From NCBI GenBank assembly GCA_937864235.1, contig CALMJI010000018.1, forward strand, positions 8,939-72,938: a DNA stretch of 64,000 nt, read 5' to 3'. Below are positions 13,538 to 58,493 of the stretch, in pieces. This stretch comes from an uncultured bacterium (GTDB taxonomy: Bacteria > Patescibacteriota > Minisyncoccia > SW-4-49-11). The notes under the pieces were generated by a model. That model saw only the letters and a program-made list of their open reading frames with translations. It did not search any database and was not told the DNA's origin. The first letter of the stretch is position 1. Every line of letters starts with the position of its first letter. The position numbers and the translations under genes are program-made.

Positions 13538-13605
13538 AGAAGTGTTATTTAATTATTATTGTTTAACCTAATAAAAACTTAGATGAGTCAAACATACTCT
13601 TGCCT

Positions 13606-13634
13606 ATTATAAACTATATCTGTAATTTAGTCAA
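13606..13634 (-). promoter_or_regulatory. Consensus sigma70 promoter for tuf and the S10 operon
   Basis: Read on the minus strand: TTGACT (13629-13634), a 17-nt spacer, then TATAAT (13606-13611), about 69 nt upstream of the tuf start. Confidence 0.6.
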
Positions 13635-13680
13635 GTGTTTGTTTGTAATTATGAATTATGGGTTTTGAATTTTAAGTTAT

Positions 13681-13930
13681 AGTGACAACACCTCCCCCGA
13701 GGGAGGACAGTTACGTCTGTCCCTCGTCGGGGCGCGAAGGGTGGCAAGGAGTGCCGGGTTTGAACTGAGCGAAATTCCCCTCTTGAGGGGTGCCCGTAGG
13801 GCGGGGTGGATAAAATTAAAACTATAGTATGAACTTTAACCAATATCCACCTCCGGCCTAAAGGCCACCTCCTCCAAAGGAGGACAGAAATACCACAGAA
13901 TACTGTAGGAATAAACTCTACGCTACGAAA
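13681..13930. repeat. GC-rich island of REP-like hairpin repeats (GTAG/CTAC-flanked stems) plus one copy of a conserved 46-nt hairpin element (13845-13890)
   Basis: Local GC far above the roughly 30% background. Short perfect stems (CCTCCC-CCGA-GGGAGG; GGACAG-TTACGT-CTGTCC; CCCCTC-TT-GAGGGG; GGCC-TAAA-GGCC). GTAG at 13796 and CTACGCTACG at 13918-13927. No ORF with homology. Confidence 0.6.
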
Positions 13931-13935
13931 AATAT

Positions 13936-30106: not shown

Positions 30107-30152
30107 TTGTCCCTTTGTATAAACTTTAGTAAAGTTTATTGCTCAATCGTCT

Positions 30153-30200
30153 ATCCACCTCCGGCACTCCGTGCCACCTCCTCCTAAGGAGGACAAAAAA
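30153..30200. repeat. Second copy of the conserved hairpin element ATCCACCTCCGGC-hairpin-GCCACCTCCTCC-AAGGAGGACA
   Basis: Near-identical to 13845-13890. The internal hairpin differs between copies (GGCC-TAAA-GGCC versus GGCAC-TCC-GTGCC) while pairing is preserved. Confidence 0.6.
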
Positions 30201-30252
30201 TTAAGAGTATCAATCCCCTCTTAAACTGGTAAGGACAAGCCTTGGACTAACT

Positions 30253-30270
30253 GTCTCCCTTTGGAGGGAG
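30253..30270. repeat. 18-nt exact repeat GTCTCCCTTTGGAGGGAG (hairpin CTCCC-TTTGGA-GGGAG); second copy at 55789-55806
   Basis: Identical 18-mer found at two distant intergenic sites. Confidence 0.6.
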
Positions 30271-30284
30271 AAAAATAAAAATAC

Positions 30285-31445: not shown

Positions 31446-31616
31446 ATATGTATATTAGTTTATATTGCTTTCTATATATTATTTTACCCCCCCGGAGCTT
31501 TTGTCAAGTTTTTTGAATGGTTTTTATATATATTTTTTGTTATATACCTTAGTTTGGGTTTTGGCAACGGTTGCAATTGTGGATATGTTTGGGTTGTAAT
31601 TGTGAATATTAAATTA

Positions 31617-31720
31617 TCTACCCTACCTCTTCGGGGACTTACTCCTAAGGGGAACAGAAAGCAAGCTACAAAAACAGCCCCCTCCACCTGCGGGTAATCC
31701 CTCCAAAAGGAGAGAAAACA
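31617..31720. repeat. GC-rich degenerate member of the CCTCC/GGAGG hairpin-repeat family in the pilin upstream region
   Basis: CTACCCTACC, CCTCTTCGGGG, and CCACCTGCGGG...CCCTCCAAAAGGAG, which resembles the 13845/30153 element. Confidence 0.4.
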
Positions 31721-39138: not shown

Positions 39139-39278
39139 ATTTATAATATATTAATTATTATAAATTAATTATATCACATTTTATATTTTTTGTCCAATAA
39201 AAAATTCACTGTATATACAAAACACAAAATATAAGTTATAATATATATAATAATGATAGTAATTTAATTATAAAATAT

Positions 39279-39740
39279 ATGTCCTATGGTAAACTAAGGA
39301 AAAATGTACTGGCAATCATATTTGATAAAGATGGAAATGTATTAATTGTCTCCAGAGCCAATGATCCTCTACATTGGCAATTTCCCCAAGGTGGGGTGAA
39401 TGAAAATGAGACTAATGAAGAAGCTATTATTAGAGAATTAGGAGAAGAACTAAATACTACAGACTTTACAATTTTAGATAAATGTCCCGAAAAACACACC
39501 TTTTATTTCCCTAAAAGATTGATTAGAGATGAGAATTTGGGACAAAAACAAACCATTATATTGTTAAGATTCAATGGGAGCACTCAATCAATAAGAGTTG
39601 ACCGTCGTGAATTGGGTGGATTTTTGTGGGTTTCACAAGCACAAATTGGAAAGTTTTTACACGAGTATCGTAAGCCAGTCTGGTATATTGTAATGAAATA
39701 CTTTTCACCAGAAAAAATAACCGAATTGCTTAATAATTAA
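39279..39740 (+). CDS. Nudix hydrolase
   Basis: Nudix box GGVNENETNEEAIIRELGEELN. Confidence 0.85.
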   Translation: MSYGKLRKNVLAIIFDKDGNVLIVSRANDPLHWQFPQGGVNENETNEEAIIRELGEELNTTDFTILDKCPEKHTFYFPKRLIRDENLGQKQTIILLRFNGSTQSIRVDRRELGGFLWVSQAQIGKFLHEYRKPVWYIVMKYFSPEKITELLNN

Positions 39741-39745
39741 ATACC

Positions 39746-40960
39746 ATGTATCAGTCTAACCTCATCTCCAAAACTAGAAAACAAATTTCTCAAACAGAAG
39801 AGTCTTTGAATGCACAAATACTCATAAAATCTGGATATATCGAACAAGTTATGGCTGGGGTATATGCTTATTTACCTCTAGGATATAAAGTATTAAAAAA
39901 TATTGAGCAAATAGTTAGAGAAGAACTCAATAAAATATCTGCACAGGAGCTGCTCTTGCCTGCACTACACCCAAAATCTTATTGGGAGAAAACTGGAAGA
40001 TGGGAGAGTTTAGATGTATTATATAGATTTAAATCTTATTATACTTCTACCGAATTAGCTTTAGGATCTACTCACGAGGAAATTATTACTCCAATTGCTA
40101 AGAATTTTATTCAATCATATCAAGATTTACCCTTTGCTACTTATCAAATTCAAACTAAATTTAGGGATGAAAAAAGAGCAAAGTCTGGAATTTTGAGAGG
40201 TAGAGAGTTTATTATGAAAGATTTATATTCATTCCACAGCTCAACTGATGATTTGGATAAATATTATGAACTAGTAACTCAAGCATATCTGAATATCTAT
40301 AAAAGACTTGGAATAGGAGATATTACTCTTAAGACTTATGCTTCTGGAGGAACATTTAGTAAGTATTCACACGAGTTCCAAACTATATCAGATATTGGAG
40401 AGGATACTATTTTTGTGTGCGAGAAATGTAATATTGCAATTAATAAAGAAATTATCGAAGAACAAAAAACTTGTCCAGAATGTGATAATTCTGACTTGAT
40501 TCAAAAACAGTCTATTGAAGTTGGAAATATATTTAAATTACAGACTAAATATTCTGAAGCTTTTGATTTGGAATTTACTGATGAGAGTGGGGTAAATAAA
40601 CCCGTTATTATGGGATGTTATGGAATTGGAATCTCTCGATTAATGGGGACTTTAGTAGAAGTCTTTGCCGTGAATGAATCTAAAATGTTATGGCCAGAAT
40701 CTGTTGGTCCATTTGATATACATTTAATAACTCTTAATACAGACTCTGAGGAAGTGGTCAAAAAATCAGAAGAATTATATATTATGTTGCAGAAAGAAGG
40801 GAAAGATGTCTTATTTGACAATAGAAATGAAAGACCTGGTATAAAATTTGCAGAAGCAGATTTAATTGGAATTAATAAAAGAATTATTATTAGTTCCAAA
40901 ACCATAGCCCAGAATGGAGTAGAGATTGATGGACAAATAATTCCATTCGACAAAATATAA
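39746..40960 (+). CDS. proS: Proline--tRNA ligase (compact form lacking the editing insertion)
   Basis: ProS N-terminus (ILIKSGYIEQVMAGVYAYLPLGYKVLKNIEQIVREE); class II motifs; CxxC...CxxC zinc motif; 404 aa. Confidence 0.8.
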   Translation: MYQSNLISKTRKQISQTEESLNAQILIKSGYIEQVMAGVYAYLPLGYKVLKNIEQIVREELNKISAQELLLPALHPKSYWEKTGRWESLDVLYRFKSYYTSTELALGSTHEEIITPIAKNFIQSYQDLPFATYQIQTKFRDEKRAKSGILRGREFIMKDLYSFHSSTDDLDKYYELVTQAYLNIYKRLGIGDITLKTYASGGTFSKYSHEFQTISDIGEDTIFVCEKCNIAINKEIIEEQKTCPECDNSDLIQKQSIEVGNIFKLQTKYSEAFDLEFTDESGVNKPVIMGCYGIGISRLMGTLVEVFAVNESKMLWPESVGPFDIHLITLNTDSEEVVKKSEELYIMLQKEGKDVLFDNRNERPGIKFAEADLIGINKRIIISSKTIAQNGVEIDGQIIPFDKI

Positions 40961-40980
40961 AGTAATCTATCTTATATATT

Positions 40981-42162
40981 CTACTTAGATTTAATAATCT
41001 CTATTGCTTTATCTAGTTGTGGATCTTTTTCTGCCTTAATATCATCAGATGTTAACTTGATTTCAAAATCTGGCTTAATACCCTCTTTATTAATAGCTAG
41101 TCCCGATGGGGTCACCCATTCTGCAATAGTATATTTTAAGACTGAACCATCAGCAAATTCTTTGGTACTTTGAACTAACCCTTTACCAAAAGTCTGCTCT
41201 CCTACCAATTTCACATCTTTTATATCTCTTAAAGCCCCAGCTACTATTTCAGAAGCACTGGCTGAGCCTTGATTAACTAATAAGACTAGTTTTATATCTT
41301 CATATTTAGGATTCTTCTTTGTTTTTAATTCTTTCACCATATCAGACTCTTTACCTTTTTCTATAACTGCTATTGATCCTTTTGGTGTAAATAGCTCCAC
41401 TACTTCTACGGCTGATTGTAAATATCCTCCAGGATTATTTCTTAAATCTAAAACTATCTCATCGATTCCCTTTTCTTTTAATTTTGATATCTCTAAATCT
41501 AATTCACTAGCTGTTTCTAACTGAAATTGAGACATAGCTATAACCCCAACTCCATCTTTTTCTTCCACTTCAATATTTGGGACATCTATAATATCCCGAA
41601 TAATCTTAAATTCTAATAAATCTGACTCCCCCTCACGTGCAATTTCTAATTTAACTTCTGTTCCTTTTTCTCCTCTAATTTTAGTGACAGCCTTCTCTAC
41701 ACTCAATCCAAATGTACTTTCTCCATTTATGGAAACTATAGCATCTCTTGGCAATAATCCAGCCTTACTAGCTGGAGTACCTTCAATTGGACTGACAACT
41801 ATTAACTGATCTTCTCTTAAACCAATTTCTGCTCCAATCCCTTGAAATTGACCCTCCAAACTTTCAGAAAAATCGCTATATTCTTTTTGTGATAAATACA
41901 CAGTATATGGATCTTCTAGAGATTCTACCAAACCTTTAATTGCACCCAACTCTGCTTCTGATTTATTGTTTATCTTATCTGGATAAAGATATTCTTTTTG
42001 TAAGAAATCATATACTTTTTGTAAAGAAGCTGTATTTACACCATTTGAAGTAGGATTATTTTGAGAAATGAAGCTATAAACATAATCTTGGAAATAAAAA
42101 CCTCCCAATACAAAAGATATTATTAAAAGAATAGCTGTAAATACAAAGTTAGAAAATTTCAT
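40981..42162 (-). CDS. ctpA: Carboxyl-terminal processing protease (S41, CtpA-like) with PDZ domain
   Basis: N-terminal TM; PDZ; S41 catalytic region (NQGSASASEIVAGALRD). Confidence 0.85.
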   Translation of the reverse strand: MKFSNFVFTAILLIISFVLGGFYFQDYVYSFISQNNPTSNGVNTASLQKVYDFLQKEYLYPDKINNKSEAELGAIKGLVESLEDPYTVYLSQKEYSDFSESLEGQFQGIGAEIGLREDQLIVVSPIEGTPASKAGLLPRDAIVSINGESTFGLSVEKAVTKIRGEKGTEVKLEIAREGESDLLEFKIIRDIIDVPNIEVEEKDGVGVIAMSQFQLETASELDLEISKLKEKGIDEIVLDLRNNPGGYLQSAVEVVELFTPKGSIAVIEKGKESDMVKELKTKKNPKYEDIKLVLLVNQGSASASEIVAGALRDIKDVKLVGEQTFGKGLVQSTKEFADGSVLKYTIAEWVTPSGLAINKEGIKPDFEIKLTSDDIKAEKDPQLDKAIEIIKSK

Positions 42163-42179
42163 AGTATATTAGAGATTAA

Positions 42180-42998
42180 TTATTTATGTGGATTAGGTTT
42201 ACCCCAAGTTTTTATGAAAAACTTGATACCATCTTTAATATGTATCCAATAGATTTTTTTAAATAATAGATTCAACACAAAACCATTTTGGCTAGATTTG
42301 CGATGATAATGATACATCTTTACCTTAGGATAATAAACTACTTTATATCCAGCAGACCAAACCTGCCAGGCAAAATAAGTATCTGATAGATATAAAAACA
42401 TATCTTCGTCAAGATAGTTTATTTTTTCTACTAAAGTTTTAGGAAACATATAGGCCGCCCCCAAAATCCAATCTACTTCCCTAATAGATTTATGATCCCA
42501 ATCTGACATCTTAAATCTATCAACAGCTTTCTTTGCAAATGGGAATAATCCAACTGGAGTTCTGCGATATAATGCTATCAATGGTGTCAAAAATTTATAA
42601 GTAGATTCTTGTACAGAACCGTCAAAGTTTAGTAACTGAGGTCCAATAAGACCTACTGATGGATTTTTTTCTAAATAATCTACCATTTTTTCAACCATAT
42701 CAGCTTCCAAAAAAGCATCAGTATTTAGATTAAATATATAATCAGATTGAGCATATTTAGCACAAATATTAACCCCTTTAGTATAACCATAATTTTTGGT
42801 TTGCTTTAAAAACTCAACTAAAGGATACTGATTTTTGATATCTTCTTCCAATTCATCAGCATCTTTTGAAGCATTATCTAACACGATTACCTGAAAAGGA
42901 ATGGTAATATTTGCTTGATAAATTTTTTTCAGACAATATAAGAGTAAGTCTTTTGTATTATAGTTTACAATGGTGAGAGCGACCTTATATTTTTGCAT
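42180..42998 (-). CDS. Glycosyltransferase family 2
   Basis: VALTIVNYN...VLDNASKD and DxD-type GT-A fold motifs. Confidence 0.8.
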   Translation of the reverse strand: MQKYKVALTIVNYNTKDLLLYCLKKIYQANITIPFQVIVLDNASKDADELEEDIKNQYPLVEFLKQTKNYGYTKGVNICAKYAQSDYIFNLNTDAFLEADMVEKMVDYLEKNPSVGLIGPQLLNFDGSVQESTYKFLTPLIALYRRTPVGLFPFAKKAVDRFKMSDWDHKSIREVDWILGAAYMFPKTLVEKINYLDEDMFLYLSDTYFAWQVWSAGYKVVYYPKVKMYHYHRKSSQNGFVLNLLFKKIYWIHIKDGIKFFIKTWGKPNPHK

Positions 42999-43000
42999 AT

Positions 43001-44050
43001 CTATCGTTGAAGTTCTGTAATTTCAGTACCAAATATACCCTGTATATCTTTTTGGAAAGCTGTAAAATTACCACTTCTTGGAATAATTACATAACCTATA
43101 TCAGGTAGGGTTTGTGAAGTAAATGGACCATCATTAGATGTGTCATATCCTTTTTGAATCATATTATTCATATCCAAGGTGCTAACAGTATCTACAGCAA
43201 TTCTTAATTCTTCAACTGTCATTGTAGTTCTAACATTAGTTCCAAAATTCTCTAAAAGATTAAGCATAAAAATAGGATTTTTAATAGCACCACTCTGTTC
43301 AGCCTTATCTTTAATAGCTGTCATAACTTCTCTTTGCCTACGAGAGCGATCAAAATCATTACTCGTTAATCTAGCTTGAACATATTTAAGAGCTTTATCA
43401 CTGTCTAGCTCATTCAATCCTTTCTTGACTCTAATACCACCATCATAATTAGGGTCATAAAAATTACTTTCAGCATTAACTGTAATACCGCCAAGAGCAT
43501 CAATTATCCCCTTAAAAGCAATAAAATCAACACTAACCCCATAATGCATTGGCATACCTGTAACATCTTCTAAAACCTGCATAGTATATTGCAAACCTTG
43601 TGGAGGCTTTTGTCTAAAACCAATAGCATGAGCTGCGTTGAGCTTGCTATAACCTTTAGTCCCTGGAACTGTTACTCTTAAATCTCTAGGGATTGAGACC
43701 ATAGCTATTTTTTTTGACTCCTGTTGCATAGAAAGGATCATTATAGAATCAGCCAATAGCCCACCGTTTGGATCATTCTCCCCCCTCATACCAAGAAGCA
43801 CTATATTAGTTCTACCATTATCTGATTTTAACTGCTTGTTGGTAGCTCCAGATAATAATGATCTAGCTGTATCAAAAATAGATTGATTCTCCCCAGTAAT
43901 ATTATTAATAGATTTATTAGCTCTATAGGCAAAATATCCAAATACAGAAGCCCCAATAAAAAAGATAATACCAAAGGTAATCAAAAGCTTTTTCTTCCAT
44001 GGCTTCATCTTCTTCTTAGATTTTTGATCATTAGGTATAATTTTTTTCAT
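43001..44050 (-). CDS. LytR-CpsA-Psr (LCP) family cell-envelope phosphotransferase
   Basis: N-terminal TM and LCP core (NIVLLGMRGENDPNGGLLADSIMILS). Confidence 0.85.
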   Translation of the reverse strand: MKKIIPNDQKSKKKMKPWKKKLLITFGIIFFIGASVFGYFAYRANKSINNITGENQSIFDTARSLLSGATNKQLKSDNGRTNIVLLGMRGENDPNGGLLADSIMILSMQQESKKIAMVSIPRDLRVTVPGTKGYSKLNAAHAIGFRQKPPQGLQYTMQVLEDVTGMPMHYGVSVDFIAFKGIIDALGGITVNAESNFYDPNYDGGIRVKKGLNELDSDKALKYVQARLTSNDFDRSRRQREVMTAIKDKAEQSGAIKNPIFMLNLLENFGTNVRTTMTVEELRIAVDTVSTLDMNNMIQKGYDTSNDGPFTSQTLPDIGYVIIPRSGNFTAFQKDIQGIFGTEITELQR

Positions 44051-45165
44051 AGTGAATTTACTTCCTTTATAACTTGTATAGTTTCCTTAGCGCAACGATT
44101 CCAAGAAAATTCTGACACCCTTTCTAATCCCTTAACTCTCATTGTTTGCCTCAAATCTGGATTACTTATTATATTGTCTAATACTTTTGCCATATCGTCA
44201 ATATTATGTGGGTCAAAAGATAGACTGGCCTCTCCCCCAACTTCAACCAGACTAGGAGTATTAGATACTACTGTAGGCACTCCACAGGCCATTGCTTCTA
44301 AAATTGGCAATCCAAACCCTTCGTAGAAACTAGGCAATACAAATAAATCTGATCCCCATAGAAGTGGAGATAATTCTGCATCCTCAAATCTACCAGTAAA
44401 AATTATATCTTCCCTATAGTCATCTCCAATTTCCTTCATTACATCTTCTACCAACCAAGCTTTGGCTCCTGCAATGACTAGCTGATAATTATGATCAGTA
44501 GTTTTTCTGAGTTTCTGATAAGCCTTGATTAGACCTTGAATATTTTTCCTAGGCTGAACATTTCCAATATATAAAATATATGGTTTGGTAATATTATATT
44601 TTGACTTTACATCTGCTACCAAATTTTCTTCTCCTTCTTGCATTAGTCGAAATCTATCCTTATCCACACCGTGATAAACAACGGTAATTTTATCTGGATT
44701 AATTTTATAAAATTTAATAATATCTTGCTTGGTAGCCTCAGTAATAGCAATTAAATGGTCAGCTTTTGTAATTGCTTCTCTTACATAAAGTTTATGCAAA
44801 AAAGCATCCTTAGCAGGGAAAGTTTCAGGATATAAAAGAAAAGCTAAATCATGAATAGTGACAACAGACTTTTGATTTTTTGCCTTCAAAAATGGAAGCA
44901 TTTGAATTGGCATAAACAATACATCTGACCTGTCTCGCCTTAATAAAAATGGGAATACTCGCTGAGTCCACATAAAAGGAGCTTGCTGTACTTTATGCTC
45001 AAAGTTCGGAGCTTCAACTTTTTTATTACTAGGTTTATTATAATAAAAAGTATATTGATTTATCTTATCAATCTCACGAATGGATCGAAATAAATTTAAA
45101 ATATAAGTCTGATTTCCATCCTCCCGCTCTTGACACAAATGTGAACCGTGTACTGCTATTCTCAT
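44047..45165 (-). CDS. Glycosyltransferase family 1 (GT4-like)
   Basis: EGFGLPILEAMACGVP motif; 372 aa. Confidence 0.85.
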   Translation of the reverse strand: MRIAVHGSHLCQEREDGNQTYILNLFRSIREIDKINQYTFYYNKPSNKKVEAPNFEHKVQQAPFMWTQRVFPFLLRRDRSDVLFMPIQMLPFLKAKNQKSVVTIHDLAFLLYPETFPAKDAFLHKLYVREAITKADHLIAITEATKQDIIKFYKINPDKITVVYHGVDKDRFRLMQEGEENLVADVKSKYNITKPYILYIGNVQPRKNIQGLIKAYQKLRKTTDHNYQLVIAGAKAWLVEDVMKEIGDDYREDIIFTGRFEDAELSPLLWGSDLFVLPSFYEGFGLPILEAMACGVPTVVSNTPSLVEVGGEASLSFDPHNIDDMAKVLDNIISNPDLRQTMRVKGLERVSEFSWNRCAKETIQVIKEVNSL

Positions 45166-46232
45166 ATATCTAAATTATTATTTTCTAAAGCTATAATTCC
45201 AGGTAATTGACCTTGCTTGGCAATATATTCTAACATTGCTCCACCGCCAGTTGATATAAAGTCTATTTTAGACTCTTGATGTAGATTATGAACCTCATCT
45301 ATAGTCTCCCCACCACCTATCACAGAATAACTTTCCTCATTCTTAGCAATAGCTTGAGCTATTGCTCTAGTCCCTTCATCATAAGGCTTTTGTTCAAACC
45401 AACCCATTGGACCATTCCAAATTATAGTTGATGCCTTAGCAATATATTCAGCAAATAATTCCCTCGTTTCAATACCAATATCATATCTATCGGCCTCAAC
45501 AAAATCTACAGGCAAAATAATTTTCTCACTTTGAGCAATTTTGTACTCATCTATATATTCATTAGCAATCTTCCCACCTACCAAAATATAGTCAAAGCTA
45601 GATTCTAAGACCTGAATGACTGGTAACTTAGTAGATATCTTTGCTCCTCCTATAATAGCAACAGCCGGCTTATTAGGATTAGTCAAAATATAATCTAAAG
45701 CTGCTAATTCTTGCTCTAAAACAAGACCTCCAAAGCTAGGTAAAATCTTGGTAATAGCATCAACTGAGCTATGTTTACGATGCATCACTGAGAAAGCATC
45801 ACTCACATACAAATCACCAAATTGAGCTAGAGTTTGGGCAAATTCCTGACTATTTTCTTCTTCTTTCGCATCAAATCTAAGATTCTCTAGACAAATCACT
45901 TCCCCATCAGAAATATCATAGCTAATATTAGGATTAACTTCAGCAATATCATCTGCAATAAAATTAATCTTAAATCCACCCAACTCAGCTAGCTTCTTTA
46001 TAATTAGACTAAGCGACAAGCCCGCTCTACCCTCCTTTTGTGGATCGCCCAAGTGAGCTATGAGCACAATCTTAGCCCCAGCCTGCCTGAGAAAATTAAT
46101 AGTTTGCGAAGCCTTAGCTATACGAAAGGTATCCTGAGGGAATCCCCTCTCATCCACCGGTTCATTGACATCGATTCTTAGTAAAAATCGCTTCCCCTCT
46201 AATAAGGTTTTATAATCTTTTATATATCTCAT
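45162..46232 (-). CDS. pgk: Phosphoglycerate kinase (compact)
   Basis: GKRFLLRIDVNEPV N-terminus; AHLGDP; GGAKISTK; GGGA motifs; 356 aa. Confidence 0.85.
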   Translation of the reverse strand: MRYIKDYKTLLEGKRFLLRIDVNEPVDERGFPQDTFRIAKASQTINFLRQAGAKIVLIAHLGDPQKEGRAGLSLSLIIKKLAELGGFKINFIADDIAEVNPNISYDISDGEVICLENLRFDAKEEENSQEFAQTLAQFGDLYVSDAFSVMHRKHSSVDAITKILPSFGGLVLEQELAALDYILTNPNKPAVAIIGGAKISTKLPVIQVLESSFDYILVGGKIANEYIDEYKIAQSEKIILPVDFVEADRYDIGIETRELFAEYIAKASTIIWNGPMGWFEQKPYDEGTRAIAQAIAKNEESYSVIGGGETIDEVHNLHQESKIDFISTGGGAMLEYIAKQGQLPGIIALENNNLDI

Positions 46233-46286
46233 ATGAAAATATTATATCATAAACTCAATAAATTGTGAATTGCAAATTATATCATC

Positions 46287-46475
46287 CCTTCGTAGCGGAG
46301 GCTTTTAGTCTATCCCATACCTTGTTTGGGATGGGGTTTATCCCTCCATTTTTTCGTAGGAGCATGACACCCCCCTCCTAAAGAGGATAAAAGCTCCAGT
46401 ACAAAAATACCTCGGGCGACATAAGGCCGCCCCTACAAACACAAAACACAATTGAGGGACTTAAAGCCCTACGAT
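46287..46475. repeat. Cluster of REP-like elements: two forward GTAG-hairpins and two inverted hairpin-CTAC units (BIME/REPIN-like)
   Basis: GTAG at 46292 and 46356. GGTTTATCCCTCC at 46335-46347 matches the RAYT-internal hairpin. Hairpin GGGCG...CGCCC followed by CTAC at 46433; AGGG...CCCT followed by CTAC at 46470. Local GC is about 50%. Confidence 0.65.
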
Positions 46476-46540
46476 TACAAGAATAATTTATATTTCTTAA
46501 CTTTTAATTCTTAATTCTAGCCCGCCCTCTACTACAAAAT

Positions 46541-46569
46541 TTGCTATTTTTGGTATTTTATGCTATAAT
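46541..46569 (+). promoter_or_regulatory. Sigma70-like promoter for the tandem GspE / tsaE / fem operon
   Basis: TTGCTA (46541-46546), 17-nt spacer, TATAAT (46564-46569). The ORF-track start at 46541 is a TTG inside this promoter. Confidence 0.5.
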
Positions 46570-46591
46570 AATAATATATACTTTTATATTT

Positions 46592-49591
46592 ATGAGTTCA
46601 GTATTAAAACAAAAAAAATCTAATCGTCAAAGCTTTAGAGACAAATTGCATTCTGATAATGCAGTTGAGCTTAATTTAGCGGTAATTCACAAAAAAGAAG
46701 AAGAACTTAATACTCAAAGATTAGCTGACAATCTTGGTATGGCTTATCTGAATTTGCAATTTATTCCTATCAATCCCGATGCTTTGAAAATATTAACCAA
46801 AGAACAGGCTCAAAAGGCTAAAATGATTATTTTTCAAAGATCTGGACTACATCTCAAGATAGCTATACAGGATATATCTAATCCTGTTGCTAAGACTATT
46901 TTACAAAAATTATATCAAAATAAATATGAATTAGATTTATATTTGGTGTCAAAGTACAGTCTAGAAAAGGGATATAATGCTTACGCATTTTTACAAGATA
47001 GGAGTGAAGTTGTCAAAGATAAATTAGTAATTCCTTTTATGATGCTGGAGGATGTAAGGCAAGGAGTAGTAAATTTAGATGATTTTGCTAGTAAAATTAA
47101 CTCTGTTGACACTTCTGAATTAATTCAAATAATTTGTGCCGGAGCTATTACCTCTTTGGCTAGTGATATTCATATAGAGCCCAAAGGAGATATTACGCGT
47201 CTTAGATATCGTATAGACGGTGTTTTGCAGGATATTCTGAATTTTGATAATGCATTATATGAGTTGCTAATCTCAAGAATAAAAAATCTAGCTTCCCTTG
47301 TGTTGAATATTAAAAGCACCTCTCAGGATGGTAGATTTAGTATTATTATTCAAGAGGAAAATGGAAGGGTTAAAAAATCTATTGATGTAAGAGTTTCTAT
47401 ATTACCAAGTAAAACTGGGGAAATTATTGTGATGAGATTATTGAATGCTGAAATTCATAATCTAGATATTTATAGTTTTGGCATTCGAGAATCCTTTTTG
47501 AATACTATAGTTAGAAACTTGGATAAACCACAAGGTATGATTATGTTATCAGGGCCAACTGGATCTGGTAAAACAACTAGCCTTTATTCATTCTTAAATT
47601 ATGTGAATCGATCTGAGACCAATATTATTACTATTGAGGACCCAATTGAATATAGATTACCTAATATAAATCAAACTCAAGTGGATACTAAAAAAGGTTA
47701 TGATTTTGCAAATGGGCTAAAGGCTATTGTAAGGCAAGACCCTGACATAATTATGGTAGGTGAAATTAGAGATAATGAGACTGCGAATATAGCTGTAAAT
47801 GCCTCTATTACTGGACATTTGGTGTTTTCTACTATTCATACGAATGACTCTGTGGGTATTGTGACAAGACTAAAAGAATTTGGCTCTACTCCTCAACTTA
47901 TTATCTCAGCTATGAATTTATTTATTGCCCAGAGATTGGTAAGAAAATTATGTGAATGTAAAGAGGAATATATTCCTACTGAGTCAGAAGTTGACTTAAT
48001 CAAAAAGACTTTAGCTATTATTTCACCTAAATCTAATCTTACTCTCCCTCAGGAAATCAAAAAACTATATAAACCTAAGGGTTGTGTGAAATGTTATGGA
48101 ATTGGTTATAAAGGTAGAATTGCTTTATATGAATTGTTCGAGGCTAAGGATAATATTAGAGATTTAATTATTAATAATATTCCAGAATTTAAAATATTCC
48201 GTAAAGCGGTTGAAAATGGGATGGTGACTTTATTTCAAGATGGAGTTTTACATACAATAGACGGAGAAACTTCGCTTGAGGAAGTTTTATCTGTGGCAGG
48301 AGATATAGGGTATATAGACGAGATTTATGAGTCTACTCTAAGCTCGGCTTTATCTAGAGGAATTCATATCAAAAAATCAAGCAATACTCTGCCTGAAATT
48401 ACCCATCTCTCTGAATCTATGTCTATTGATGATCAGTTAACTGCTATTACCAATGCTGCTCTTGTAAAAAGAGCTACGGATATTCATCTTGAGCCTGATA
48501 TGGCTGATTTGATTATCAGATTTAGAATTGATGGAGTTTTGTATGAGGAAGCTCGTGTACCAAAATCTCTATACCCGCAAATTCTAACTCAAATTAAAAT
48601 TTTTACAGGACTACCTCTTGATATTGCTAATAAAATTCAAGAAGGAAGATTTACTATTTTTGCTGATAAAAACTTTGATGTGAGAGTCTCTATAATTCCA
48701 GGAGGCTATGGACAAACCATCGTACTTAGAATATTAAGGTCAGATATTGCCAAACTCAAATTGCAAGATCTCGGTATGGATGAATATAATATTAATCTCC
48801 TACAAGAGCAATTACAAGCTACTACCGGACTTATTTTGGTTACAGGACCTACTAGTGCTGGTAAATCTACTACTCTATATGCTACCCTTAATACTCTCAA
48901 TCAGCCTGGGGTAAAAATTATTACTATTGAAGATCCGATTGAATATAAATTATCTGGTATTTTGCAAACTAGCATCAATGAAGAGACTGGATATAGTTTT
49001 CCCAATGCTATTAGAGCTTTACTTAGACAGAATCCTAATATTGTCTTAATGGGAGAGATAAGAGATACCGAAACAGCTAAGGTAGCTATGCAAACTGCTG
49101 CAACGGGGCATCTTTTGTTATCTACCCTACACACTAATGATGCCGCCTCTGCCATTTTGAGATTATATGATTTAGGAGTTGGATTGTCTGAGATAGCTAC
49201 TTTTGTGAATGTAACTATAGCCCAGAGAATTATTAGGAAAATTGATCCAGAAACTGCTACTACTATCAACCTATCACAGGAGCAAAAAGAGATTATTAAA
49301 TCTAAATTGCCAGACAGATACCATAATTTAATTCCAGACACTATCCTAGAGGCTAATGCTAGTCCCGATCATCCAAATGGATATTATGGTATCACAGCCA
49401 TTTTTGAAGTTTTAGTATTGACTCCTAAAATTAAAGACGTTATTATCCAGCAAGCTTCAACGGCTAATATCAAAAAACTGGCTATTGAAGAGGGAATGAC
49501 AACTTTGGAAGTTTCTGGTATTCTAAAAGTATTAGACCATACTACTGATTTTGCCGAATTGGAAAGAGTATTGGGGATAAAAGTATTATAA
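46592..49591 (+). CDS. Tandem-fused double GspE/PilB-family secretion ATPase (two complete N2 plus ATPase modules in one 1009-aa polypeptide)
   Basis: Module 1 has Walker A GPTGSGKTT, Asp box IEDPIEY, Walker B MVGEIRD, His box GHLVFSTIHTN and a CxC...CxxC zinc motif. Module 2 has GPTSAGKST, IEDPIEY, LMGEIRD and GHLLLSTLHTN but no Cys tetrad. Each module is preceded by a GspE N2-like domain. Confidence 0.85.
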   Translation: MSSVLKQKKSNRQSFRDKLHSDNAVELNLAVIHKKEEELNTQRLADNLGMAYLNLQFIPINPDALKILTKEQAQKAKMIIFQRSGLHLKIAIQDISNPVAKTILQKLYQNKYELDLYLVSKYSLEKGYNAYAFLQDRSEVVKDKLVIPFMMLEDVRQGVVNLDDFASKINSVDTSELIQIICAGAITSLASDIHIEPKGDITRLRYRIDGVLQDILNFDNALYELLISRIKNLASLVLNIKSTSQDGRFSIIIQEENGRVKKSIDVRVSILPSKTGEIIVMRLLNAEIHNLDIYSFGIRESFLNTIVRNLDKPQGMIMLSGPTGSGKTTSLYSFLNYVNRSETNIITIEDPIEYRLPNINQTQVDTKKGYDFANGLKAIVRQDPDIIMVGEIRDNETANIAVNASITGHLVFSTIHTNDSVGIVTRLKEFGSTPQLIISAMNLFIAQRLVRKLCECKEEYIPTESEVDLIKKTLAIISPKSNLTLPQEIKKLYKPKGCVKCYGIGYKGRIALYELFEAKDNIRDLIINNIPEFKIFRKAVENGMVTLFQDGVLHTIDGETSLEEVLSVAGDIGYIDEIYESTLSSALSRGIHIKKSSNTLPEITHLSESMSIDDQLTAITNAALVKRATDIHLEPDMADLIIRFRIDGVLYEEARVPKSLYPQILTQIKIFTGLPLDIANKIQEGRFTIFADKNFDVRVSIIPGGYGQTIVLRILRSDIAKLKLQDLGMDEYNINLLQEQLQATTGLILVTGPTSAGKSTTLYATLNTLNQPGVKIITIEDPIEYKLSGILQTSINEETGYSFPNAIRALLRQNPNIVLMGEIRDTETAKVAMQTAATGHLLLSTLHTNDAASAILRLYDLGVGLSEIATFVNVTIAQRIIRKIDPETATTINLSQEQKEIIKSKLPDRYHNLIPDTILEANASPDHPNGYYGITAIFEVLVLTPKIKDVIIQQASTANIKKLAIEEGMTTLEVSGILKVLDHTTDFAELERVLGIKVL

Positions 49592-55709: not shown

Positions 55710-55741
55710 AGCCCCACAAGTAACTAGCGGGGCTTTTTTCT
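55710..55741 (+). terminator. Rho-independent terminator
   Basis: AGCCCC...GGGGCT stem followed by TTTTTTCTTTTT. Confidence 0.55.
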
Positions 55742-55749
55742 TTTTCCTT

Positions 55750-55870
55750 CGTAGGGGCGACCTTGCAGTCGCCTGTATTTGATATTTTGTCTCCCTTTGG
55801 AGGGAGTCCCCGTAGGGGGAGGTGGTCCCTCCAATACTTTGTTTGGGAGGGGACGGAGGAGGACTATACC
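55750..55870. repeat. REP-like GTAG-hairpin elements plus the 18-mer GTCTCCCTTTGGAGGGAG
   Basis: CGTAGG-GGCGAC-cttgca-GTCGCC (55750-55774). 18-mer identical to 30253-30270 (55789-55806). CGTAGGG-GGAGG-tggtc-CCTCC (55811-55832). GGAGGAGG-rich tail. Confidence 0.65.
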
Positions 55871-57894: not shown

Positions 57895-58443
57895 ATGAAA
57901 AGGCAGTATAATAGATTATCTAAAGAGCTTTATACTGGTGGTTTTTGGTATTTTGTGACTATATGTACAGATGATATGAAATGTATATTTGTAGCGGAGG
58001 GTTTATCCCTCCAAGACAACAAATTTATACTCAATTCTTTGGGTAAAATAGTGGAACAAGAAATTTTGAATTTGGAAAATAACTTTCGTAAAACAAAAGT
58101 TGAAAATTATATTATTATGCCCAATCATACTCATTTGATTATTTCTATTGATGAAGGTGCTACTAGAGTTAATTTTCAAAAAATGATTTCCTTAGGGGAT
58201 GTTGTTGGTTTATTAAAAGCATATACTCAAAAAAGGGTCAGAGATGAGTTAAATAAAAATGGAGGGATAAACCCTCCGCTACGAAATATTAAAGGAGTTA
58301 ACTTTAATAAAATTTGGCAAAAATCTTTTTATGATCATATCATTCGTAATGATAATGATTTACTAAGAATCCAAGAATATATTATAAATAATCCTATAAA
58401 CTGGGAGTTAGACTCTCTCAACCCCACCAATCTCAAAAAATAA
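57895..58443 (+). mobile_element. REP-associated tyrosine transposase (RAYT; IS200/IS605 TnpA-like Y1 HuH enzyme), single domesticated copy
   Basis: HuH motif (NHTHLII) and catalytic Tyr block (WQKSFYDHIIRND). 182 aa. No flanking IS ends. Starts 11 nt after the cca stop. Confidence 0.8.
57991..58012. repeat. GTAG-hairpin (GTAGC-GGAGGG-TTTAT-CCCTCC) inside the RAYT coding sequence; perfect inverted partner at 58261-58282
   Basis: The two 22-mers are exact reverse complements, 248 bp apart. Both lie in-frame within the ORF and match the intergenic elements at 46292 and 46335. Confidence 0.7.
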
Positions 58444-58472
58444 TTGACAAATTTCAATCTCTAGACTATAAT
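58444..58472 (+). promoter_or_regulatory. Perfect consensus sigma70 promoter driving the V/A-ATPase operon
   Basis: TTGACA (58444-58449) begins immediately after the RAYT stop. 17-nt spacer, then TATAAT (58467-58472), 21 nt before ATG 58494. Confidence 0.6.
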
Positions 58473-58493
58473 GAGTTGTATTTATAAACACCT

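Follow-up and report, generated by a model that had tools for sequence, protein, structure and literature searches.

Likely mobile extragenic palindromic repeats of the REP/BIME/REPIN kind, and a RAYT-type transposase gene, in Paceibacteria

Introduction

The closest described relatives of the repeat reported here are the REP (repetitive extragenic palindromic)/BIME/REPIN-RAYT systems of Escherichia coli and Pseudomonas (for the definitions of REP, REPIN and RAYT see PMC3116915 and PMC5581495). In this work we analysed a 46-nt element that occurs in a 64,000-nt stretch of DNA from an uncultured bacterium of the GTDB lineage Patescibacteriota; Minisyncoccia; SW-4-49-11 (assembly GCA_937864235.1, contig CALMJI010000018.1, positions 8,939 to 72,938), and this whole stretch is called here the window. 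The genomes of CPR (candidate phyla radiation) bacteria, or Patescibacteria, are small, streamlined and usually described as repeat-poor, and in the literature that we searched there was no description of extragenic palindromic repeats in this group. We propose, with a probability of roughly 0.66, that the 46-nt element is an arm of a lineage-specific family of dispersed extragenic palindromic repeats in Paceibacteria/Parcubacteria (CPR), which is REP/BIME/REPIN-like and in its largest form is a miniature inverted-repeat transposable element (MITE). It makes up one half of a small hairpin-forming repeat dispersed in the intergenic DNA of a group of very small, uncultured bacteria from fresh water, and the most probable explanation is selfish mobile DNA of a familiar kind, as opposed to a genetic switch or a terminator.

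Like the REP, BIME and REPIN sequences, the arms are short imperfect palindromes, strictly extragenic and present in multiple copies. They occur mainly as inverted doublets with a short spacer and in mosaic clusters, and the singlets look like decayed remnants. The pairing in the stems is conserved, a RAYT-family gene is found at a conserved syntenic position, and the arms are accompanied by modules in which a 5ʹ GTAG is followed by a hairpin. Unlike these systems, each arm has two hairpins and long invariant blocks (GGAGGAGGTGG and GGAGGTGGAT) but no invariant GTAG; the RAYT gene is not flanked by arms and carries GTAG modules inside its reading frame, not beside it; and the host is a CPR bacterium with a small genome of 32% GC.

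Results

An earlier note, made from the letters of the window alone, had pointed to a structured element at 13845-13890 and 30153-30200 (copies 1 and 2), with common flanks, a common second hairpin, and a first hairpin that differs between the copies (GGCC/GGCC vs GGCAC/GTGCC) and is perfectly paired in both of them. Our reading of the sequence agreed with this description. Both copies are opened by the 10-nt block ATCCACCTCC and closed by an A-rich tail. In copy 1, the block (13845-54) is followed by hairpin 1 (GGCC-TAAA-GGCC, 13855-66), ACC, hairpin 2 (TCCTCC-AAA-GGAGGA, 13870-84) and CAGAAA; in copy 2, the block (30153-62) is followed by hairpin 1 (GGCAC-TCC-GTGCC, 30163-75), ACC, hairpin 2 (TCCTCC-TAA-GGAGGA, 30179-93) and CAAAAAA. 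The window has a GC content of 32%, and the arms form GC-rich islands within its intergenic DNA. Folding of the plus strand predicted exactly two hairpins for each copy (z = -3.3 and -3.6), and both were recognised with high scores by a covariance model (CM) of the arm (Table 1). The motif common to the two copies has 0.00 expected occurrences in shuffled sequence, hence chance does not explain their presence. The difference in hairpin 1 had also been interpreted as a compensatory substitution between the two copies, and here our results led to another conclusion. The subfamilies CC-TTTA-GG and CAC-GGA-GTG each recur in several genomes and the window contains one copy of each, so the difference is an old subfamily split and not an event between the copies in the window.

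The data examined comprised the 64 kb of the window and 8-20-kb pieces of the genomes of relatives, the latter selected as repeat carriers (these loci are denoted by L numbers). One genome per species was scanned with the pattern GGAGGAGGTGG-N6-18-GGAGGTGGAT. The matches in high-GC genomes turned out to be glycine-rich coding sequence. The genuine copies, at least 49 among the matches listed, have TGTCCTCCTTT on the 5ʹ side and are all intergenic (49/49); they come from at least eight species-level metagenome-assembled genomes (MAGs) of CPR bacteria labelled Parcubacteria, Paceibacteria, Paceibacterota or 'Saccharibacteria', with up to about 18 exact-pattern arms per MAG among the matches listed (sister MAG JBEAQD01). 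A CM search had been proposed in the earlier note; applied to relatives' loci, it revealed many copies beyond the first two and the covariation of hairpin 1: there were 115 matches in 391 kb of family-bearing loci. In the negative control, which consisted of 471 kb around tuf of relatives with an EF-Tu identity of at most 76% (JGI metagenomes), the CM gave 0 matches, indicating that the family is clade-restricted.

The arm is 46-48 nt long and contains two local hairpins. Its consensus consists of ATCCACCTCC, a variable hairpin of 3-6 bp, CCACC, the conserved TCCTCC-N3-GGAGGA hairpin and ACAAAA. In the alignment of the 115 members (107 distinct), 89.6% of cells pair, in comparison to 82.9% after shuffling (0/500) and at most 65% when the partner is shifted. 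Each of the five pairs of hairpin 1 has changed on both sides (e.g. A-U in 37 and C-G in 31 members at one pair), while hairpin 2 and the flanks are nearly invariant across the family. The exact-pattern set, in which hairpin 1 was left free, gave the same pairing picture as the fitted alignment. For the covariation of the hairpin, the best explanation is that folded single-stranded DNA is recognised. The covariation also bears out the view of the earlier note that the element is constrained in structure and is not a decaying repeat; among the kinds of element listed there, a mobile one fits best, whereas the terminator-like one is not supported.

Adjacent matches are arranged head-to-head, with their ATCC ends facing each other, in 34 of 43 pairs, and 79 of the 115 matches are paired. 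The spacers of the doublets are AT-rich and usually of 20-60 nt; the gaps between the matches have a mode of 16 nt and further classes of 27-29, 36-39 and 47-58 nt. Copy 1 belongs to such a doublet, which spans 13773-13889 and reads on the plus strand TTCCCCTCTTGAGGGGTGCCCGTAGGGCGGGGTGGAT, spacer and then ATCCACCTCC. The first hairpins of its two arms are not mutually complementary, which indicates that each arm folds locally. The arms also cluster and nest with modules composed of GTAG and a GC-rich hairpin, which are classically REP-like. Mosaic clusters with alternating orientations are located at 13687-13929, 46289-46476 and 55748-55866 of the window, and also in L191. In the second of these, a 33-nt insert interrupts the GTAG hairpin at 46293 (46293-46345), and another GTAG hairpin, at 46357 (46357-46397), has an arm fragment in its loop. 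The earlier note had overlooked the doublet status of copy 1, the large clade-wide family and the RAYT-type gene of the window. Its count of two copies was too low, as the repeat search and the CM gave further arms and fragments (Table 1). The degenerate third copy that it had placed at 31681-31715 is present but weak, and a slightly better one adjoins it.

Table 1. Arms, arm fragments, companion modules and the transposase gene located in the window
Feature	Position	Strand	Basis
Fragment like hairpin 2 (CCTCCCCCGAGGGAGGACAG)	13687..13713	+	Repeat family D1; partial CM match 13690-13707
Third, degenerate arm ('X-arm'), kin to CCTCGCTGGCGAGGGTGGCACAAAGTGCCGGGTGTGGAC in L087	13715..13767	-	CM 7.7 bits; by-eye comparison with L087
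Partner arm of copy 1 doublet, plus strand TTCCCCTCTTGAGGGGTGCCCGTAGGGCGGGGTGGAT, hairpin 1 GCCC-GTA-GGGC	13773..13813	-	CM 17.9 bits, E 0.0015; head-to-head with copy 1
AT-rich doublet spacer, 29 nt, spacer class as in L046 and L087	13814..13842	.	Sequence, gap between CM matches
Arm copy 1, subfamily with hairpin 1 GGCC-TAAA-GGCC, right half of inverted doublet	13843..13889	+	CM (R1) 67.6 bits, E 4e-18; fold; sequence
GTAG-type REP-like module, minus strand TTCGTAGCGTAGAGTTTATTCCTACAG, between ABC-F stop and arm	13903..13929	-	Sequence
Arm copy 2, subfamily with hairpin 1 GGCAC-TCC-GTGCC, singlet, tyrS/pilin-like spacer	30151..30198	+	CM (R1) 75.6 bits, E 2e-20; no partner arm within 120 nt
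Hairpin-2-only fragment (TGTCTCCCTTTGGAGGGAGA), opposite orientation, same hairpin as 55787-55806	30252..30271	+	Sequence
Degenerate arm	31614..31659	+	CM 16.1 bits, E 0.005
Degenerate arm (third copy of the earlier note)	31674..31719	+	CM 11.3 bits, E 0.12
Cluster of four GTAG-hairpin modules (two per orientation), nested inserts	46289..46476	.	Sequence, motif search; different cluster in sister MAG
Arm-like hairpin-2 piece in the 46289-46476 cluster	46338..46392	+	CM 10.5 bits
GTAG-hairpin REP-like module TTCGTAGGGGCGACCTTGCAGTCGCC, perfect 6-bp GC-rich stem after GTAG	55748..55773	+	Sequence; same module within ~280-bp composites
Arm, opposite orientation, hairpin 1 CCCC-GTA-GGGG	55785..55829	-	CM 16.7 bits, E 0.003; L186 orthologous arm has hairpin 1 GCC-TGCAA-GGC
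Shortened arm-like remnant (TCCCTCC...GGGAGGGGACGGAGGAGGAC) directly 5ʹ of promoter	55826..55866	+	Comparison with L186 7926-7975
RAYT-type (Y1/HUH, IS200-like) transposase gene, 182 aa	57895..58443	+	PF01797 (below cut-off), 4ER8, homologues, motifs

Even between genomes with about 95% nucleotide identity, an orthologous site can hold a cluster, hold another one or be empty. The contig JBEAQD010000050 (L005) is 94.8% identical to window 39179-46280, which places the window and the JBEAQD01 MAG (Parcubacteria) in the same or a very close species. Beyond position 46280, L005 contains a wholly different cluster; its full doublet has an arm with 97.7% identity to copy 2 of the window, and the window contains there only GTAG modules. 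We noticed that nothing was alignable between the intergenic clusters that extend from pgk to the pilB-like gene (window 46281-46540, L005 7205-7770). L005 ends inside this 46.3-kb cluster, which suggests that the repeats may break MAG assemblies.

The site of copy 1 gave a similar picture. In L193, where ABC-F is 79% identical, the ABC-F-tuf order, the end of the ABC-F gene and the tuf promoter and leader are all kept, and the spacer is repeat-free and 156 nt long vs 398 nt in the window. L191 (85%) and L192 (80%) have different clusters after the ABC-F gene and a different downstream gene. We also observed that the cluster after the ABC-F gene (window 13538-13935) coincides with a break of synteny: tuf is the next gene in the window and in L193, and in L191, L192 and the P0125-encoding contig it is a pilin-like gene or a gene for a 661-aa protein.

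This site also allows one to consider whether the GC-rich block 13680-13890 could be a gene, either a 64-aa open reading frame (ORF) at 13649-13843 on the minus strand, which begins immediately behind GGAGGTGGATA, or a small structured RNA. The block has a GGAGG resembling a Shine-Dalgarno sequence 6 nt before the TTG start codon and a fold z of about -3.5 on both strands, but it is missing from the orthologous site of L193, the ORF has no Pfam match and is built wholly of repeat modules, and there is no Rfam match to the block even at E ≤10. A gene at this position is hardly credible. With no Pfam match and no counterpart in L193, the ORF is probably spurious, although gene callers could pick it up. 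Shine-Dalgarno/anti-Shine-Dalgarno mimicry driving this small ORF was also tried as an explanation and rejected, as the ORF is familyless and made of repeat modules.

A finer view of the turnover was provided by L031 and L087, two near-identical orthologous loci. Their differences are an insertion of 103 nt within the hairpin 1 loop, a hairpin of 19 nt placed in the loop of hairpin 2, a 37-nt module downstream and a replaced patch in a third arm. The inserts are clean, with no obvious target duplication, and the 103-nt module recurs in L005, L065 and L066. Such behaviour resembles that of the small dispersed repeats of heterocystous cyanobacteria, reportedly described by Elhai et al. in 2008, which are said to be likewise tiny hairpin modules (about 19-40 nt) that nest in one another, here in hairpin loops, and that differ between close relatives. 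In contrast to them, our repeats have an unrelated sequence and host, and nesting is seen at few loci (L031 vs L087; window 46289-46392).

In L186, which is more distant and syntenic, arms are found in the same spacer downstream of CysS as in the window (55.7-55.9 kb), with hairpin 1 GCC/GGC vs CCCC/GGGG in the window and with an extra doublet. Arms kept in one orthologous spacer between diverged genomes could mean that they are double-stranded DNA sites for a host protein (nucleoid, gyrase-like or regulatory) and that GGAGGTGGAT and GGAGGAGGTGG are kept for its recognition. The invariance of the flanking blocks next to a varying hairpin 1 stem and the absence of strand preference agree with such a function. 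On the other hand, binding to a duplex needs no covariation of a hairpin stem, arms are gained and lost between genomes that are 95% identical, and no candidate binding protein was identified. We regard this explanation as very improbable.

With respect to gene context, the earlier note was right in placing both copies at the 3ʹ ends of convergent or tail-to-head genes: copy 1 is located between the ABC-F stop codon (13936) and the tuf promoter, and copy 2 between the convergent stop codons of tyrS (30106) and of a pilin-like gene (30285). In the loci examined, 18 sites are co-directional, 7 convergent and 2 divergent, and this bias is the usual REP-like avoidance of promoter regions. The orientation of the arms relative to genes is mixed, with no preferred strand; an impression gained from three copies in the window, that orientation follows the direction of genes, was not upheld in 34 doublets. 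We also noticed doublets or composite elements within about 20-250 nt of tRNA genes in L031, L087, L040 and L101, which may reflect a possible preference for tRNA-adjacent spacers.

Alternatively, the position at gene ends may indicate that the arms act in RNA, as terminators, as stabilisers of 3ʹ ends against exonucleases, or by a CCUCC/GGAGG partner switch at the ends of mRNAs. In E. coli, stabilisation of the mRNA upstream is a known effect of REPs. In agreement with a role in RNA, stop codons precede copies 1 and 2 by 47-50 nt, the hairpins are stable (z about -3.5) and covary, and divergent sites are less frequent than convergent or co-directional ones. The arms share with intrinsic (Rho-independent) terminators the GC-rich hairpin 3ʹ of a gene, but a T/U-run behind the hairpins is missing from both strands, and the arms were not flagged in the terminator scan, so we rejected the terminator as a candidate. 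Canonical terminators exist separately in the same genome, e.g. a hairpin followed by a T-run at 55711-55745 (+). The 55.7-kb cluster lies downstream of this terminator and upstream of the next promoter, thus it is probably little transcribed. Moreover, arms occur in both orientations, no difference between the strands was found in the fold energies of the doublets (22 vs 12, p = 0.23), and the orthologous site of L193 is cluster-free with its gene ends and promoter kept. Searches of Rfam at the gathering score revealed only tRNAs in the window and nine related loci, and at E ≤10 there was nothing credible around copy 1. Taken together, a role in RNA seems to us quite unlikely. An asymmetry of G.U vs A.C pairs, tried as a sign of the transcribed strand, was null in energy terms; the result obtained by eye was ambiguous due to alternative registers of hairpin 2. 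Near-consensus sigma-70 promoters (TTGACT/TTGACA-N17-TATAAT) were found for tuf (13634-13606, minus strand) and at 58446-58474 (plus strand). The tuf gene is served by a TTGACT-N17-TATAAT promoter of its own on the downstream side of the cluster, and no Shine-Dalgarno sequence was recognisable before its ATG.

In two MAGs, JBEAQD01 and JBIKWJ01, the arm doublet is the core of a repeat of about 280 bp that is non-coding and conserved within and between genomes. We observed these composites in L012, L014, L055 (e.g. 1769-2063), L065, L093, L101 and other loci. They are bounded by TGTAYGAGATGAGG...ATCGTAGACAA and its inverse, and their terminal inverted repeats (TIRs; TGTAYGAGATGAGG ... CCTCATCTTATTCA) are of the TG...CA type, about 14-30 nt long, and contain the GTAG motif. 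The 5-nt flanks match at all five positions in three of nine elements and at four positions in two of nine, in comparison to 4% of permuted pairs reaching at least four, and these matches probably represent 5-bp target duplications. In their TIRs, their probable target duplications, their lack of coding capacity and their many near-identical intergenic copies, the composites of the sister MAG resemble MITEs (Correia/NEMIS, ERIC, RUP and the cyanobacterial Nezha). Unlike MITEs, the copies in the window lack terminal repeats, the conserved unit that different genomes have in common is the 46-nt arm and not the composite, and a parent insertion sequence was not found in the fetched loci.

These elements raise the question of whether the arms are purely the inner part of a MITE moved by a DDE transposase, in which case the copies in the window would be remnants of the 280-bp element and the RAYT protein would be irrelevant. 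Apart from the type of TIRs and the probable target duplications, this is suggested by the occurrence of composites in the sister MAG of the species of the window and by the left terminal repeat that adjoins doublets in L031 and L087. Nevertheless, the terminal repeat has no match anywhere in the 64-kb window, many doublets lie outside composites, modules were inserted into hairpin loops without visible duplications, and the TIRs themselves carry the GTAG motif. In the fetched loci, which are a small part of each genome, no pair of such TIRs was found to enclose a gene-sized segment, as would be expected for the autonomous element. We therefore consider this origin of the arms unlikely.

The protein encoded at 57895-58443 matched PF01797 (Y1_Tnp) with 20.8 bits, below the cut-off of 23. 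Its best match in the PDB was the E. coli TnpA-REP (4ER8), aligned over the HUH and catalytic-tyrosine regions, and many of its 695 homologues have PF01797 or are named 'REP element-mobilizing transposase RayT'. The motifs YFVTICT, MPNHxH and WQKSFYDHIIR and the residue Tyr162 were invariant among 13 aligned homologues. In relatives, the gene is located between the CCA-adding enzyme and V-ATPase genes, where the copies are only 55-76% identical. It is single and syntenic within the 64-kb window and the 8-20-kb loci, and tblastn found no further copies in the fetched CPR loci. Such behaviour has been described for RAYTs (PMC5581495).

The gene contains, in frame, two inverted GTAG hairpins, one at 57991-58012 (GTAGCGGAGGGTTTATCCCTCC) and the other, its reverse complement, at 58261-58282, which bracket the HUH-coding core. 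RAYT genes are normally flanked by their repeats and not interrupted by them. In the syntenic homologue of L186 (10001-10561), both positions hold a different hairpin (GTAGAGTCGGCGACCCCGCCGAC). The product is a candidate for the enzyme that mobilises the GTAG modules and, with more speculation, also the arms.

Two further observations concern the surroundings of the 46.3-kb cluster. Nearly all long ORFs are encoded by the minus strand as far as 46232 and by the plus strand from 46541 onwards, with the switch at the repeat-rich spacer (about 46230-46540), which could be a replication origin or merely the boundary of divergent operons. The ORF that follows (46541-49591, plus strand) encodes 1016 aa with two T2SSE (type II/IV secretion ATPase) stretches, about twice the usual length, and this arrangement is kept in L186 (999 aa).

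Discussion

We propose that the arms would be non-autonomous mobile DNA or its remnants, with the singlet copy 2 and the degenerate copies as probable decayed leftovers. The hairpins may be kept because the copying enzyme recognises folded single-stranded DNA. The candidate engine would be the RAYT protein, or a DDE transposase acting on the TIRs of the composites, and any effects on neighbouring genes, e.g. on the stability of mRNA 3ʹ ends, would be secondary.

Several points weigh against an interpretation of the arms as mobile repeats. Neither transposition nor activity of an enzyme was observed. Some orthologous sites have retained arms in diverged genomes (the window vs L186), which could mean a host function. 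The arm consensus has no invariant GTAG, which is found only in the hairpin 1 loop of one subfamily and in the companion modules. The RAYT gene is not bordered by arms, of which the closest lies some 2 kb off, and the repeats at the gene itself are GTAG modules. Copies 1 and 2 do not have the TIRs of the composites. As for the numbers, the loci counted were chosen for holding at least one arm, so the densities and the fractions of doublets are biased upward; the alignment used for covariation was fitted to the structure of the model, which somewhat inflates the pairing; and the evidence for target duplications comes from nine elements with AT-rich flanks. Since membership in the REP/REPIN class is incomplete (no invariant GTAG, a RAYT gene not flanked, no TIRs on the window copies, no movement seen), we assign the family to the general kind of dispersed extragenic palindromic mobile repeats.

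It is also conceivable, though doubtful, that these CPR genomes harbour a distinct REPIN-like system. The two-hairpin arms without GTAG would then be a new class of substrate, copied by insertion of single-stranded DNA targeted to hairpin loops, and the partner would be a RAYT with its own in-frame inverted GTAG hairpins around the HUH core. In that case, the concerted exchange of the hairpin pair between lineages (GGAGGG/CCCTCC in the window, GTCGGCG/CGCCGAC in L186) might suggest self-regulation or self-editing of the gene.

The interpretation as dispersed, probably mobile palindromic repeats means that several freshwater Paceibacteria carry an abundant, nested and fast-turning-over repeat family together with a RAYT-type gene. 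It explains GC-rich 'structured' islands in AT-rich intergenic DNA, which otherwise could be mistaken for riboswitches, small RNAs or small ORFs. The repeats mark breaks of synteny and likely breaks of MAG assemblies, and they are potential strain-level markers. If the link to the enzyme is true, the REPIN-RAYT picture would be extended well beyond Proteobacteria.

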